DNA of 64,000 nt. Origin: Candidatus Latescibacterota bacterium. Lineage in GTDB: Bacteria; Latescibacterota; UBA2968; UBA8231. The first letter of the stretch is position 1. Each line of letters opens with the position of its first letter. The position numbers are program-made. This document shows positions 28,101 to 34,100 of the stretch, piece by piece. Location: positions 2,272,001-2,336,000 of the forward strand of contig CBDAOB010000005.1 in the NCBI GenBank assembly GCA_965197905.1, in the 5' to 3' direction.

Positions 28101-31100
28101 CGCATACCGGTTAACCCAAACCTATCATACCGGAGTGTGCATCTACTTTACCATGGGGTTTTGCGGTAAGGGACTGGAGAATCCGGAAGAGGTCTACCAC
28201 AACATCGAGCGTGCCCTGCGGCAGGTGATTCTGGACAACGGCGGCTCTCTCTCCCACCACCACGGCATCGGCAAGATTCGCCGCAACTTCCTGCCGCAGA
28301 TTCAAACGGAAAACAGCACCCGCGTGCTGCGCGACATCAAGAGCTCGATGGATCCCAACAATGTCTTCGCCGTTGGCAACGGCCCCTTCTAGCCCCGGCC
28401 ATGTTCCGCGACAAGGTAGTGATCGTGACGGGGGCTTCCTCTGGACTGGGCGCAACGTTGGCGACCGAGTTCGCTGCCACCGGCGCCAAGGTTGCGCTGT
28501 TTTCACCGGAGGAAGAGAAGCAAGCGGAGGTGGCGCGGCAATGTGAAACGGCGGGTGGCAAAGCGTTGTCGGTGGTGGGCGACGTAACCCTGGAGCGTGA
28601 CTGCAAGATCCTGGTCGAGGAGACGCTGAGCTCCTTCGGTGGGATCGATTACCTCATTGCCAACGCCGGCATCAGCATGTGGGCGCCCTTCGCCGATGTG
28701 GACGATCTTCAGGTCTTTCGAAAGCTGGTCGAGGTGAACTATCTGGGCGCCGTGAACTGCATTCACTACGCCCTGCCCCATCTGATTGCCAGCAAGGGCA
28801 TGGTGGTCGCTATTACCTCGATCCAGGGTAAGATCGGGGTTCCTCTTCACACCGGATACGTCGGCTCCAAACACGCCCTTCAAGGCTTCTGCGAGTCGTT
28901 GCGTATGGAGCTTGCCGGCACCGGCATGGGCGTCCTCACGGTGCTGCCACACTGGTTGCGCGGTACCGATCTGAGAAAGAACGCCTTTGGCAAGGACGGC
29001 CGCGCCCTCGGCACCTCCTCCCGGCGCCACAGCAGCGAGTCGATATCCCTTGAAGTGGCGGCTCGCGCAATCATGAAGGCGACCCACAAACGCAAACGCA
29101 CTCTGGTTATTCCCTGGAAGCTGCGGTTGCTGCTGGCCCTCAACCTGTTCAATCCGGGGTTGGCCGAGTCGCTGATCACCGGTGCGGTGAAACACCAGGA
29201 TGACTAGGTCAGGTGAAAACGAGCGGCCCAGAGTGGTTTCCCTCCCGTTTTCACTATAACCTACCATCCAGTCGCCACGCACGGCTGTTCCCGACCCGAG
29301 CTGACCTGGAACTCCGTGGCAATCCGCGGCGTTTCTCGTTCTGACCTGTTAGGCAAGGTTCGGAACAACATCTTGAGTTGCAGATCGAGGAATGTTTAGG
29401 CTGACTTCAGTTTTTCTTCTTGTGCTACTGATCTCCGGTTCGGCCGTGGGCCAGGATCCGGATACCTTGCTGACTGTTGCGATTCCGAATGGGGAGTTCA
29501 TGCAGTTCGCCTGGATCGAGCCGGGTAACTTCCTCATGGGAACGGAGGATGAGGACCTACCGAACGGATCGGATGAGGTTCCGGCCCACGAGGTCACGAT
29601 CAGCACCGGTTTCTACATGAGCATCTTCGAAATAACTCAAATACAGTGGGGCGCCGTTATGGATACCAAGCCCTGGCGGTTCGAGCGCTACACCATTGAG
29701 CACATTCACAGCCCGGCGAGCCATATTTCCTGGGATGATATGCAGGAGTTTATTGCGGTTTTGAACGAGTTCGAGGGCGGGTCGGTGTATCGCCTTCCCA
29801 CCGAAGCGGAGTGGGAATATGCAGCCCGTGGTTTCACCAGCTCACTCTGGTTTTTTGGCGATTCCCCCAACGCGTTGCAGCTCTACGCCTGGTATTGGAG
29901 GAACGCCTGGGACCGAGGGGAGTCGTTCGCGCATTTGGTGGGCTCTAAACTGCCCAATCAATTCGGTCTCTACGACATGCATGGCAACGTGTGGGAGTGG
30001 GTCCAGGATTGGTACGGACCGTATTCTGCAACGGCCAAGACTGATCCCGAAGGTCCGACCGAAGGAACCCGAAAGGTGCTGCGCGGCGGCGGGTTTGTGA
30101 GCCCTTTCTACGAGGCCCGCTCCGGCGTGAGAAGCAGCGAAGCCCCCGACAGTCGCTTTTCGGACATCGGCGCACGCATCGTTCGCCGCAACCTGCCAAC
30201 CTCTGTACGCCAGGAGAGCTGGGGTCGGGTCAAAGCTCGCCTCCGACCCGGCGAGAATCCCTCAAGTCCGTGAAAAACAACGAAATTCGCCGGAAATTGA
30301 TGGATTTTTGCGGCAGTGGCGCCCCGACAATCCAGGCCTCGTAACCTTACCTGTTTCAACAAGTTCCGCACCTAAAAAACAAATTGTCGCATTTTTGCGA
30401 CGATCGGTCTCTTCGACCGCAATATCGATAGTGTTTCTCGGCTACTCGCAAAGCGCTATTAAACAATTACTTACGCACTTTCGACCGAACAGCGCATAGT
30501 GGCACACATCTTGCCAACATCTTGGTGGTCCTCAAACGCCCGAGAACCATCAGGAGTCAGGTGTTCATGCGTGAAACGATCGACGGAAGCAGGGATTCGG
30601 TGCTGGCTTCGTATTTCGCCTACATCGCGGAGTCTCATCCGCTGTCGAGGGATCGAGAGCGAGAGTTGGCAGAGCGCATCCAGCAAGGAGACATGGATGC
30701 GCGGGATGAGTTGGTGCGAGCCAATCTTCGTTTCGTCGTCAGTATCGCGATGAACTACCTGAACCGGGGTATGAGCCTGGCCGACCTCATTAGCGCTGGA
30801 AATATGGGTTTGCTCACTGCTGCCGAGCGTTTCGATGCGGGGCGCGGATTCAAGTTCATTTCCTATGCGGTCTGGTGGATTCGCCAGTCGATCATCCAGA
30901 GCATGGTGGATCAATCGCGGGCCGTGCGACTCCCCGCAAACAGGATTGCCCTGCTGCGAAACATCACCAAGACCTCGCAGCGTCTCGGCAAGAATCTCGA
31001 AGTAGAGCCAGCGCTGGAGGATATCGCGGACGAACTGGAGCTACCGGTCCAGGAGTTGCTGAATACGGTGTTGAGTGCCCGAGTAGTTTGCTCTCTCGAC

Positions 31101-34100
31101 GATAGCGACGAGGAATCACACACGACCCTTTTGGATAACCTGCCTGACCGGTCGCAACGAGCTCCGGATGAAGATGTGGTGAGGTCGTCGGATAGTGTGG
31201 AACTCGGACGTATCCTCTGCACCTACCTCGATTACCGAGAACGGCGGATCGTTCAACTCTATTTTGGCTTCGACGGCAGCAACGCGATGACCCTGGAGCA
31301 GATCGGTACGATACTTGGTCTTACCCGCGAAAGGGTGCGGCAGATCAAAGAAGACGCCCTGGCGAAATTGCGCCGTACCCGGCAGACCTCCGGTCTCCAA
31401 CCATTAGTTGAAACCTGTTGAGCAGTCGAGACGCCTCAAGAGCGCCAGCACCCCCATTGGCGTAAGCATCTGACCCCACGTCGATCCACGCAGTAGCTGG
31501 CTTTATCTCCTTCCCGCAAAAACCGCTTTACAATATTCACAGCCCCCTATATTATTGTATATATTGATCTTGTGGGGAGCTTCAAGTTACTGATGACAAC
31601 TGGTTTTTGGGTCCTTGCTACCGTTTTTCTGGCTGCCCCGAGCGCCCTCGACGCCATCGCCTACCACAAGGGATCGCAGCTGCATCTGGCAATTCTGGGT
31701 TCGCGGGTAAAGTTTCCGATCTTTACCAAGGAGTTCGCTGAGGGGGAGAACGTGGTGACCGTGGGGGGCATCCGTGAGTTATGGCTTGCCGATCAAACCC
31801 AGACCTTTGGATTTCGCATGGAGCTGGACCGCATCCGGGCAAACGGCTCCGGCCTGGGGGTCGGCCTGACTTATTGGCGCACCGAGTTTGCCAACGCGTC
31901 CTTTCTGTACGACCGCGAAGGGGAATGGAACCGGATCGCCGAATACCGCGCGCCGCAGCACCAGTTCTTCTTTCTCGACCTCAACGGGATTCTGATTCCA
32001 TGGGAATCGAAACGCGAGGCGCTTGCTTTGGTGGCATTGATTGGGCTGGTGGGCGACTATGAGGAATACCGAATCGCCAAGTATTCCAACACCTCGTCCG
32101 ATCCGACGCAGGTGGGATTGACTTCGGCAAACCGGAGCAATCTCCAAACCCGATTCGGCTTCGGCTTCGGAGCACGATTCCATTTCATGGGACGACTCTC
32201 GCTGTGGTTCGAAAAACGCTGGATCGTAGGGGAACGGTTCAGCACCGATCGCAGCTTCACCGAAGGCGGGTTTTTTGCGACCGGGTCGCAAAAGACACTC
32301 TACGCGCCGATCAACTCGGTGGCCCTGGCACTGACCCTCTGATTCAGTTGCTCCTGCTCCACACCTGATTCCCCAGAGCTTCCGCGCGGGCCACAAACGC
32401 CAGCATCTCCTCGCGCAAATCTCCGGGGAGTGCCGCAAACGCTACCGGTGCAGATTCCGCCGGTAGCGGCTCTGGCCCGTTGACCCAGCGCCCATCCTGT
32501 ATTTCCCAGCATATCGCTTTCGTCGTCGCACTCTTGCGAACGAAATATCGATCGCCATGCCGGAAAACCTCGATGCCCATGATGCCGAATCCAGGTTAGG
32601 GTGGCTTCGACATCAAGATAGAGACAGAGCTGGGAGCACTCAATCCGAATCGCTTGTTTCTCCGGGAGCGAACTTCTAATTTCAGCACTCGCTCACAAAT
32701 CCCTCGAAGAGGAGAGTCTCAAATCTTAAAACTGAGTACGCGTCTGCAGACATTGGAGTCTGCCGTGCAGACTGCTTTGGAGCGCGGTCGCTCCGAAAGA
32801 ATTGCCGAGCGCATCTGGAAGCGGGACTTCACGGTGTGGAAGCCGGAAGATGTGGAAATTGGAGATCGTCTCGGTTGGCTCGATTGCCCCGACACCATTG
32901 GATCCGAACTGGCGGAGGTGGACCAAGTCGTCGAGGCGACAAGGGCTGCCGGCTACCGTCGGATCCAGCTTCTGGGAATGGGCGGCTCGAGCCTGGCCCC
33001 CGAGCTTTTTTCAACCACGTTCGGCGCATCTGCCGAAGGCGTCCCTCTGGGTGTGCTCGACAGCACCCACCCGGACGCTATCAGGACCTGCCTCGACATC
33101 CTCGACCTCGACTCGACGCTGTTTGTGGTGTCCACCAAGTCCGGCGGCACCGTGGAGACCCTGTCGTTCCTGAAGTTCTTCTTCGCCAGGGTCGCGGCAC
33201 ATCCGGGAACATCGCGTCCGGGCGACCAGTTTATCGCTATAACAGACCCGGGGAGTGGCCTCGAACAACTAGCTTCCGAACTCTCTTTTCGACATATCTT
33301 TCTCAACGATCCCGAGATTGGCGGCAGATATTCCGCCCTGTCCCTCTTCGGTCTGGTGCCGGCAAGGTTGTTGGGCATCGACGTCGATCGAATTCTTGAG
33401 CGCGCTCGCGAAGCCGCTTCCCGATCGCGCGACGATGAAGAGGATCCGGGATATCAGCTTGGCGTGATGTTGGCAACCGGTGCGTTGTACGGCCGCGACA
33501 AGCTAACTCTGGCAACAACCCCTTCACTCGCTCCCTTTGGTGCCTGGGTGGAGCAACTGATTGCCGAGAGCACCGGCAAGGAAGGAAAGGGAATACTGCC
33601 GGTCGACGGCGAAGAACTCGGCGCACCAGGTGTGTACCGCGATGACCGACTGTTCCTGCATCTGCGCCTGCAAGGAGAAAGCATGCACGACCGAGCCGTC
33701 GGCGAAGTTGCGGACACCGGTCACCCCGTCGCAGAGCTCGAGCTGGCCGATCTTTACGATGTGGGCGCGGCCTTCTTCGCCTGTGAATTCGCCACCGCAG
33801 TGGCAGGTTCATGTATGGAGATCAACCCGTTCGATCAACCCAACGTGGAGGCGGCAAAACAGATCGCTCGTGAGATGGTAACTTCCTATCTGGATAGTGG
33901 CGAGCTGCCGCGGGATGAAGCCTCCTTCGTTGACGGTGAGATTCAGGTGTTCGGTGGTTCGCGGTGCGCGACGGCTGGACAAGCGTTGTCAGAATTCCTG
34001 CAAACCCGGTCGCATTCCGCTCCGTATCTGGCTATTCACGCCTACCTCGCGCCGGACCGGGAAACCGACCGACAGCTGAAGGAGCTGCAAATGCGACTGC

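Follow-up and report, generated by a model that had tools for sequence, protein, structure and literature searches.

A sigma-54 promoter stays strictly silent until its activator, an AAA+ enhancer-binding protein (EBP), acts on the closed complex and remodels it. The placing of a sigma gene under such a promoter is experimentally best known from the Lyme disease spirochete. In the flagellar hierarchies of Vibrio, Pseudomonas and Xanthomonas, sigma-54 and an EBP stand above FliA (sigma-28), a group-3 flagellar sigma factor with its own promoter class. Work on RpoN2 and FliA of Xanthomonas is cited in PMC3162934. The Hk2/Rrp2-RpoN-RpoS pathway of Borrelia burgdorferi forms a sigma-54 to sigma-S cascade, in which an NtrC-type response regulator activates the sigma-54 holoenzyme before the gene of a short sigma factor that in turn redirects transcription (PMC2940757, PMC3037356, PMC11109971), and its activation is described as enhancer-independent and as also requiring BosR (PMC3037356). 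In general, as quoted in that paper, sigma-54 enhancers are found some 100-150 bp upstream, and an IHF site frequently lies in between (PMC3037356). A literature search returned nothing joining Latescibacteria with sigma-54 or Latescibacterota with RpoN, and among the papers listed for operons of sigma54, PtsN and a sigma factor there was only proteobacterial PTS-Ntr work. To our knowledge, the lineage has no cultured members.

The window analysed here is a stretch of 64,000 nt from an uncultured, soil-type Candidatus Latescibacterota bacterium (contig CBDAOB010000005.1, positions 2,272,001 to 2,336,000; genome G000), and its features are collected in Table 1. Like the Borrelia pathway, the g05654 locus would combine an NtrC-type EBP with a sigma-54 -24/-12 promoter directly before a short alternative sigma-70-family gene, the promoter being predicted from sequence and the regulator a candidate. 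It differs in its conserved palindrome at -112 and its IHF-like site, and three paralogous sigma genes appear to be wired in this way in the same genome, apparently through two regulators. The wiring of g05654 follows a known principle and is not new; in this genome it appears to recur before three sigma genes. We give a probability of about 0.75 to the reading that g05654 encodes a primary-like alternative sigma factor transcribed by sigma-54 RNA polymerase, with the response regulator EBP-2 likely acting through the blocks at -112 and -195.

Table 1. Features of the g05654 locus and of a related operon. Positions without a contig name refer to the window; offsets are relative to the sigma-54 box.
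Feature	Position	Strand	Remarks
Distal block ATTTTTGCGGCAGTGGCGCCCC	30304..30325	+	About -196 to -175; candidate second activator site
Proximal block	30384..30404		Perfect palindrome GTCGCA-TTTT-TGCGAC (30386-30401); candidate enhancer (UAS)
IHF-like site AAACAATTACTTA	30461..30473	+	Between palindrome and box, -39
Sigma-54 -24/-12 box TGGCACACATCTTGC	30500..30514	+	GG 30501-30502, GC 30513-30514
Predicted leader	30526..30566	+	Start near 30526 predicted from GC at -12; AGGAG at 30552-30556
g05654 (P0001)	30567..31421	+	284-aa RpoD/RpoS-like sigma factor, 1 of 13 paralogues
P0002 gene	31572..32342	+	256 aa, hydrophobic N-terminus; possible member of the g05654 transcription unit
Proposed third circuit	C4:336145-340369		Kinase/regulator pair C4:336145-338582, TGCA-N5-TGCA C4:338584 (-111), box C4:338695, PtsN-like gene, sigma gene

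All sigma-70 regions of P0001 (1.2, 2, 3 and 4) scored above the Pfam cut-offs, with 23.9, 69.3, 35.2 and 53.1 bits, respectively. The protein reached 237 bits with the RpoS equivalog model TIGR02394 (cut-off 378.7) and 207.5 bits with the RpoD equivalog NF006666 (cut-off 572). Because these scores lie under the equivalog cut-offs, P0001 was classed as a group-2-like sigma factor outside the named RpoS and RpoD families. The flagellar hierarchies are alike in that sigma-54 and an EBP stand over another sigma factor, but P0001 fits the RpoS/RpoD models (237 and 216 bits) far better than FliA/WhiG (109.5 bits, under its cut-off of 189.6), and no flagellar genes were found among the g05654 flanks. 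In regions 2.4 and 4.2, its recognition parts closely resemble the corresponding parts of the probable primary sigma factor. The tree of the sigma paralogues was a quick one (SH-aLRT only), used for coarse grouping only.

The genome-wide survey's note had placed the box 67 nt before g05654, which was confirmed (first base 30500, ATG 30567). Its GG and GC doublets stand ten bases apart within TGGCAC-N5-TTGC, and the 52 nt between the end of the box and the ATG hold a ribosome-binding site, with AGGAG 10 nt ahead of the ATG. TGGCACACATCTTGC scored 21.3 bits, in the middle of the range of the 28 intergenic boxes of the genome (16.2-25.3). The machinery for its use is encoded, with one intact rpoN gene (486 aa, with AID, CBD and DBD domains) and 28 matches to Sigma54_activat, about 23 of them strong, which amounts to about 23 EBPs.

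The earlier count of 77 exact TGGCAY-N5-TTGC matches in the whole genome was reproduced. The intergenic excess also held, although at other figures than the 39 matches in 9.2% of the genome given before: crude ORF calls that over-extend 5' ends left 10.4% of the genome as intergenic space, and 28 of the 77 fell entirely within it (binomial, 1.3e-9). For 150 control patterns with permuted letters, the mean was 28.6 matches, 2.46 of them intergenic (maximum 9), and intergenic exact boxes were about 11 times over-represented. The next ORF was co-oriented for 27 of the 28; at C4:338695, the sole exception, a minus-strand ORF had been called spuriously where a PtsN-like gene lies. Boxes preceded 3 of the 13 sigma paralogues, where 0.02 chance boxes were expected in 13 x 900 nt; within 300 nt before these genes, two boxes were found against 0.007 expected.

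With G002 (94% protein identity) as the source of its sole orthologue, g05654 has an upstream footprint drawn from one pair of closely related genomes, and kin genomes are not independent samples. The intergenic region aligned over 301 columns with 70% identity between G000 and G002, and only three perfect runs of at least 20 nt were present. Specifically, these were a 20-nt run around the box (30498-30517), the 21-nt proximal block with the palindrome and the distal block, which is the longest at 22 nt. Three such runs arose in none of 20,000 column shuffles. The blocks at -112 and -195 are candidate activator sites, with an IHF-like motif between them and the box. A relaxed form of the IHF consensus, WWHCAA-N4-TTR, occurred within 80 nt upstream of six of the 77 boxes (0.25 expected), among them the boxes of g05654 and of the second sigma gene, g02145. 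The reservation that there were consensus matches only is thus exceeded by footprints of the box and of palindromes about 112 nt upstream, with IHF-like sites in between.

These data make it improbable that the box represents a chance match to the consensus or a decayed one, kept only by the recent divergence of G000 and G002, with a primary-type promoter serving the gene instead. Such an origin would suit a gene with one orthologue only, and 49 of the 77 exact boxes fall inside ORFs by the same crude calls, so that many are presumably non-functional; however, intergenic matches number 28 against about 2.5 by chance, boxes are concentrated before sigma genes, and in the region before g05654 no more than three perfect runs occur, the box among them. 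Moreover, a scan of the plus strand from 30200 to 30567, with the E. coli-type consensus only, found no sigma-70-type promoter.

The proximal palindrome is of the form CGCA-N4-TGCG, with an N4 spacing in place of the N5 of a phylum-wide module described below. Its core, CGCATTTTTGCG, begins at -112 from the box, the same offset as that of TGCA-N5-TGCA sites at two other sigma promoters. In the 6.69-Mb genome, this core is found a single time; GTCGCA-N4-TGCGAC recurs at one unrelated place (C4:293748), and relaxed TCGCA-N4-TGCGA is found at 6 distinct sites, roughly as many as we would expect by chance. Therefore, no regulon is definable. It is very unlikely that the palindrome acts as a terminator or RNA hairpin instead of a protein site. 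A scan called GTCGCA/TGCGAC terminator-like on the minus strand (6-bp stem, 4 G-C pairs, T-rich tail), but the genes on either side are both plus-strand genes, no gene of the minus strand terminates at this place, and no T run follows the palindrome on the plus strand. The 21-nt block is kept as sequence, loop included, and its equivalents elsewhere keep a constant spacing to sigma-54 boxes. No Rfam family matched within 29000-33000 of the window or in five EBP-2-linked loci.

For g02145, which encodes a 288-aa paralogue, the box TGGCACACAATTTGC was located at C4:546352 on the minus strand, 226 nt upstream of the start codon (ATG, C4:546126; about 225 in the genome-wide survey's note). As that note had stated, the boxes of both genes precede the orthologues of the sister species G002, where g02145 has 95% protein identity. 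The g02145 orthologue in G001 (88%) also has a box, TGGCACAGATATTGC. A TGCA-N5-TGCA site at C4:546464, -112 from the box, is kept together with the box in all three species and is identical to the site of G013. The predicted promoter of g02145 is better supported than that of g05654. Neither an adjacent regulator gene nor a PtsN-like gene accompanies g02145. The note had counted two sigma genes behind such boxes; both stand, and a third had been missed, with the box at C4:338695 before a PtsN-like/sigma operon. TGCA-N5-TGCA occurs 146 times in the genome and within 300 nt upstream of just 2 of the 77 boxes, at -111 and -112, both of which precede sigma genes. From these sites, g02145 is probably driven by the same regulator as the C4:338695 operon. 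No close paralogue of that regulator was found in G000, the best being 42.6% identical.

A composite of TGCA-N5-TGCA and a sigma-54 box, with the site 88-104 nt before the box, was found in 91 of 168 phylum genomes (reversed control, 0 of 168), usually with an NtrC-type regulator gene on one side and a PtsN-like/sigma operon on the other. An RpoD-like sigma gene followed it in 36 of the 50 loci inspected (22 of 30 and 14 of 20). The regulator gene lay upstream in 21 of the 22 sigma-bearing loci of the 30-locus set, in which its position was scored, the flanks of the 20-locus set being too short to score all. Conservation only within the genus, as conceded earlier, is thus contradicted, because the box also accompanies many sigma paralogues of other genera and families, where it often lies 740-950 nt before the sigma gene, with a PtsN-like gene in between. 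In other FCB phyla, the composite was found at none of 80 primary-sigma loci, two of which had a lone box-like match.

The composite is present at g02145 (C4:546464) and at the C4:338584 operon and not at g05654, and a regulator gene immediately upstream together with a PtsN-like gene in the operon was found at C4:336145-340369 and not at g05654. The predicted g02145 promoter copies the architecture of the module. The g05654 locus resembles the module (HK, NtrC-type EBP, TGCA-N5-TGCA, box, PtsN-like EIIA and RpoD-like sigma) in box type, sigma family and the palindrome offset of about -112, whereas the IHF-like site is at about -31 in the module and at -39 here.

Based on the N4 palindrome, a candidate activator was found at another locus. 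The composite of an N4 site and a box occurred in 6 of 168 genomes (control, 0), and in G012 it lies immediately behind an EBP gene whose best match in G000 is C5:460665-461804 (63.5%; next best, 42%). This is EBP-2, an NtrC-type response regulator (C5:460422-461834) with REC, sigma-54-interaction and HTH_8 domains; a PAS-HisKA-HATPase kinase gene lies just upstream. Nine EBP-2 orthologous loci were found outside G000 (at least 54% identity), and seven of them have a sigma-54 box just downstream. In four of these seven, from four genera, a CGCA-W4-TGCR palindrome lies at -103 to -113, and one has it also at -185; the two-site layout of G136 (-185/-110) is like that of g05654 (-195/-112). Additionally, the TTTTTGCGGCA part of the distal block matches half-sites beside the EBP-2 orthologues of G012, G136 and G163. 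EBP-2 and g05654 are both present in G000 and G002, and neither is found in G001 (89% complete). EBP-2 is thus a candidate activator of g05654, based on similar sites in four to six other genera.

A rather unlikely alternative accepts the sigma-54 promoter and holds that the upstream blocks bind another EBP or regulator, or that the activator works enhancer-free from solution. The offset shared with two other sigma promoters, the N4 palindromes beside EBP-2 orthologues and the common two-site layout speak against it, while the uniqueness of the palindrome core in G000, with no regulon to define, and the EBP-2 loci of G000, G002 and G015, where no such palindrome or exact box was found, would agree with it. 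Enhancer-independent rpoS activation is also on record for Borrelia Rrp2 (Blevins et al. 2009, cited in PMC3037356).

Under the preferred reading, with EBP-2 as activator, g05654 would be transcribed from the box at 30500-30514 and stay silent until an AAA+ EBP remodels the closed complex. The activator would most likely sit on the palindrome and the related distal block, and looping over the IHF-like bend site would bring it to the polymerase. The chain would run from a signal through the kinase and EBP-2 to the sigma-54 holoenzyme, the new sigma factor and a shifted use of primary-type promoters, with the C4:338695 operon and g02145 as two sister circuits in the same genome. We infer sigma-54 dependence in vivo, the pairing of regulator and site, the start point and the targets of the new sigma factor from sequence. 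The sequencing runs listed for this DNA included no RNA run. The sigma54-to-sigma70 cascade through EBPs proposed in the survey is supported, at this level, by the boxes, the upstream footprints, rpoN, the EBPs and the phylum-wide module. A sigma gene behind a sigma-54 promoter would provide a tight, signal-gated swap of the promoter-recognition subunit of RNA polymerase.

Phylum-wide conservation, three uses in one genome and two kinds of activator sites suggest a general design for expanded primary-like sigma sets. More tentatively, and at slightly less than even odds, sigma-54 might gate the whole expanded primary-like sigma family, with separate two-component systems switching on their own RpoD-like paralogues. 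The TGCA-N5-TGCA system would then serve the PtsN-like/sigma operon and g02145, and the CGCA-N4-TGCG system g05654. New outputs would come from duplicating a sigma gene with its enhancer-promoter cassette, after which the enhancer is retuned to another regulator. If so, the arrangement would amount to a sigma-54-to-sigma-70 switchboard with multiple inputs and outputs, compared with the single linear cascade of Borrelia. The promoters, sites and candidate regulators are cloneable parts for heterologous tests.

The g05654 gene is preceded by genes for FGE-sulfatase, SDR and FAD-oxidase proteins, and neither an EIIA (PtsN-like) gene nor an adjacent NtrC-type regulator gene lies beside it. A common origin of this locus and the EBP-2 operon through their FGE-sulfatases was rejected because these proteins are only 28% identical. 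By its known distribution, in G000 and G002 and absent from the syntenic site in G001 (89% complete), g05654 is genus-restricted. No Pfam family matched P0002, whose gene was not found in G001 and accompanies the sigma gene in G000 and G002. Sigma-70-like hexamers are present before the P0002 gene, at 31527-31565.

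The genome-wide survey's note had placed a consensus sigma-54 -24/-12 box 67 nt before g05654, a sigma factor gene, and the DNA agrees: an exact match to TGGCAY-N5-TTGC (hereafter, box) lies on the coding strand, 67 nt from its first base to the ATG. The N-terminus counted from this ATG is conserved in the sister species. An alternative, earlier TTG start of the same frame would fall within the promoter. The product, P0001 (284 aa), contains sigma-70 regions 1.2, 2, 3 and 4; its top-scoring models are RpoS and RpoD, with scores below every curated cut-off of these.

The claimed 77 boxes in the genome (6.69 Mb, 5 contigs, 58% G+C) were likewise recovered on recounting. 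By crude ORF calls, which covered ~90% of the genome and over-extended 5' ends, the DNA between ORFs amounts to 10.4% of the total and wholly contains 28 of the 77 (binomial 1.3e-9). A co-oriented ORF followed 27 of these 28 under the same calls; behind the remaining one, a spurious minus-strand ORF had been called over a genuine PtsN-like gene. As a chance control, 150 patterns with letters permuted within each half of the box gave on average 28.6 matches, 2.46 of them intergenic (maximum 9), so that some nine-tenths of the intergenic boxes are in excess of what chance predicts. A single rpoN, with all three domains present, is encoded alongside 28 Sigma54_activat matches, ~23 of them strong. 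The window holds one other exact box, inside an ORF by the crude calls (see table).

Features around g05654 in window coordinates
Feature	Position	Strand	Remark
Other exact box, TGGCATAGTGCTTGC	12022-12036	-	inside ORF (crude calls); next co-oriented ORF 410 nt away
FGE-sulfatase-family gene	29392-30273		precedes g05654
Distal block	30304-30325		perfect run shared with sister species
Proximal block	30384-30404		perfect run shared with sister species; contains perfect palindrome GTCGCA-TTTT-TGCGAC
Relaxed IHF-type motif (candidate)	30461-30473		pattern match
Box block	30498-30517		perfect run shared with sister species; contains box
Box, TGGCACACATCTTGC	30500-30514	+	predicted sigma-54 promoter
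Alternative TTG start	30522		frame of g05654
AGGAG	30552-30556	+	precedes g05654 ATG
g05654	30567-31421	+	encodes P0001
Sigma-70-like hexamers	31527-31565		ahead of 256-aa gene
256-aa protein gene	31572-32342	+	hydrophobic N-terminus
Relaxed palindrome, TCGCACTCTTGCGA	32526-32539		in gap preceding PGI-like gene; relative of the -112 palindrome

Between this genome and that of the sister species, G002, the intergenic region upstream of g05654 aligns over 301 columns at 70% identity and contains exactly three perfect runs of at least 20 nt, an outcome reproduced by none of 20000 column shuffles. Additionally, the relaxed IHF-type pattern occurs at most 80 nt upstream of 6 of the 77 boxes (0.25 expected). 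In the classical layout, as described in PMC3037356, the enhancer lies ~100-150 bp upstream and IHF aids looping; the arrangement predicted upstream of g05654 is this layout. The box is probably a sigma-54 promoter, and we give a probability of roughly three in four to the full reading, in which a predicted activator would act on this promoter through the conserved upstream sites. Genome-wide, the relaxed form of the palindrome, seen also beyond the 256-aa gene, was counted at 6 distinct sites, approximately the chance number.

The short RpoD-like sigma factors form a family of 13 paralogues, one of them apparently frameshifted (C3:989172-989959, with residues 16-135 and 135-278 matched in different frames), which would make it a pseudogene or else reflect an error in the assembly. 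The paralogue at C5:1436536 has an identical counterpart in the sister species, is present once per genome and, in a quick tree, clusters with primary sigma factors of Bacteroidota and allies; it is therefore probably the housekeeping sigma factor. P0001 sits on a long branch of this tree, joined only by its sister-species orthologue (94%), and its matches in all remaining genomes are at paralogue level (55-59%). Because the recognition parts of its regions 2.4 and 4.2 resemble those of the probable primary sigma factor, their promoter specificities likely overlap. Exact boxes precede three of the 13 paralogues, against 0.02 expected by chance in 13 x 900 nt.

The second of these is g02145, which encodes a 288-aa paralogue; its claimed box about 225 nt upstream was found as TGGCACACAATTTGC at C4:546352 (-), 226 nt before the ATG. 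Across three species, namely the genome under study, G002 (95%) and G001 (88%), the intergenic DNA is far more diverged, yet conservation extends to the box, to the palindrome TGCAATAATTGCA some 112 nt ahead of it and to two blocks of the leader. Within this ~200-nt leader (C4:546352-546126), another exact TGCA-N5-TGCA lies 193 nt downstream of the first base of the box; it and a near-copy, AGCAAAATCTGCA, fall in blocks conserved in the three species. The third link, absent from the survey's note, is the box TGGCATTTTTTTTGC at C4:338695, with the site TGCAAAATCTGCA at -111. Here the order (C4:336145-340369) is PAS histidine kinase, NtrC-type regulator (C4:337224-338582; REC, AAA+ and HTH_8 domains), site and box (C4:338584-338709), PtsN-like EIIA, RpoD-like sigma and LOG-family gene. 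TGCA-N5-TGCA occurs 146 times in the genome, and within 300 nt upstream of only two of the 77 boxes, at -111 (C4:338695) and -112 (g02145). Another such site lies 284 nt downstream of the C4:338695 box.

This module recurs across the phylum. The composite of TGCA-N5-TGCA, 88-104 nt and the box was found in 91 of 168 genomes, which are kin rather than independent samples, and its reversed control in none. By family, it was present in 60/75 (f1), 21/31 (f2), 6/22 (f4), 2/2 (f9) and 1/5 (f14) genomes, and in none of the remaining nine families. The closest relatives that bear a name are MAGs labelled Candidatus Latescibacterota. An RpoD-like sigma gene followed the composite in 22 of 30 automatically fetched loci, 21 of which also had the upstream regulator gene and a PtsN-like gene. 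Among 20 further f1 loci, hand-picked from the list, 14 had a full sigma gene (8 with a PtsN-like gene, 6 without) and in one the contig ended within that gene. The other five showed no full sigma gene; in one of them the sequence available downstream was just 156 nt long, and weak region-4-like matches were seen in two. At L185 (G006:C103) and L191 (G118:C21), the composite is followed by such matches (36% and 33% identity over 60-80 aa) rather than an RpoD-like gene, possibly a different small sigma factor or HTH protein under the module regulator.

Although the g05654 palindrome starts at the module's offset (-112), its spacer is four bases long; its core, CGCATTTTTGCG, occurs once in the genome. 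The N4-spaced composite was found in 6 of 168 genomes (reversed control, 0). In G012 it lies directly 3' of an enhancer-binding protein gene whose best match here is C5:460665-461804 (63.5%; runner-up 42%), within the NtrC-type regulator gene EBP-2 (C5:460422-461834). EBP-2 has REC, sigma-54-interaction and HTH_8 domains and is preceded by a PAS kinase gene. Nine other genomes carry orthologues at ≥54% identity, seven of them with a sigma-54 box 3' of the gene. A CGCA-W4-TGCR palindrome accompanies four of these seven (-113, -113, -110 plus -185, and -103), two additional loci have related GCCGCA...TGCGGCA sites, and the distal block of g05654, TTTTTGCGGCAGTGGCGC, resembles half-sites at the orthologue loci. 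Moreover, EBP-2 and g05654 co-occur in both sister species, and neither was found in G001 (89% complete). There, the syntenic site between the FGE-sulfatase and PGI-like genes lacks g05654 and the following gene, whose 256-aa product adjoins the sigma gene in both sister species (88% identity) and matched no Pfam family. This co-inherited gene would be a first candidate for transcription by P0001. The assignment is weakened because the EBP-2 loci of both sister species and of G015 have no such palindromic site. We rate EBP-2 as the activator of g05654 at slightly below even odds. An FGE-sulfatase-family gene (C5:461831-462649) overlaps the EBP-2 stop, as another precedes g05654; a meaningful link through the pair was rejected as coincidence, since the two proteins are only 28% identical and the genome has many such genes.

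Among described systems, the Rrp2-RpoN-RpoS cascade of Borrelia comes closest and follows the same logic (PMC2940757, PMC3037356, PMC11109971). This kind of wiring is already known, and the present case is a further instance with its own features. The Borrelia cascade is reported (PMC3037356) to be enhancer-independent and to need BosR, unlike the promoter here with its conserved upstream sites. Among the papers searched, none linked Latescibacteria or Latescibacterota to either sigma-54 or RpoN. Distinctive here are three sigma genes under predicted sigma-54 control and two site types, one conserved across the phylum.

Four EBP-2-linked boxes (L212, L213, L215 and L219, from G015, G161, G163 and G157) are followed by a conserved leader, GGATCGTAACGG ... 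GGTGGGAATCG.TCCC ... GGCGCCGCACCGAG, which matched no Rfam family. It could represent a so far undescribed leader or an element resembling a riboswitch. Judged from their translations, the ORFs behind it in L213, L215 and L219 presumably resemble acetamidase/formamidase genes.
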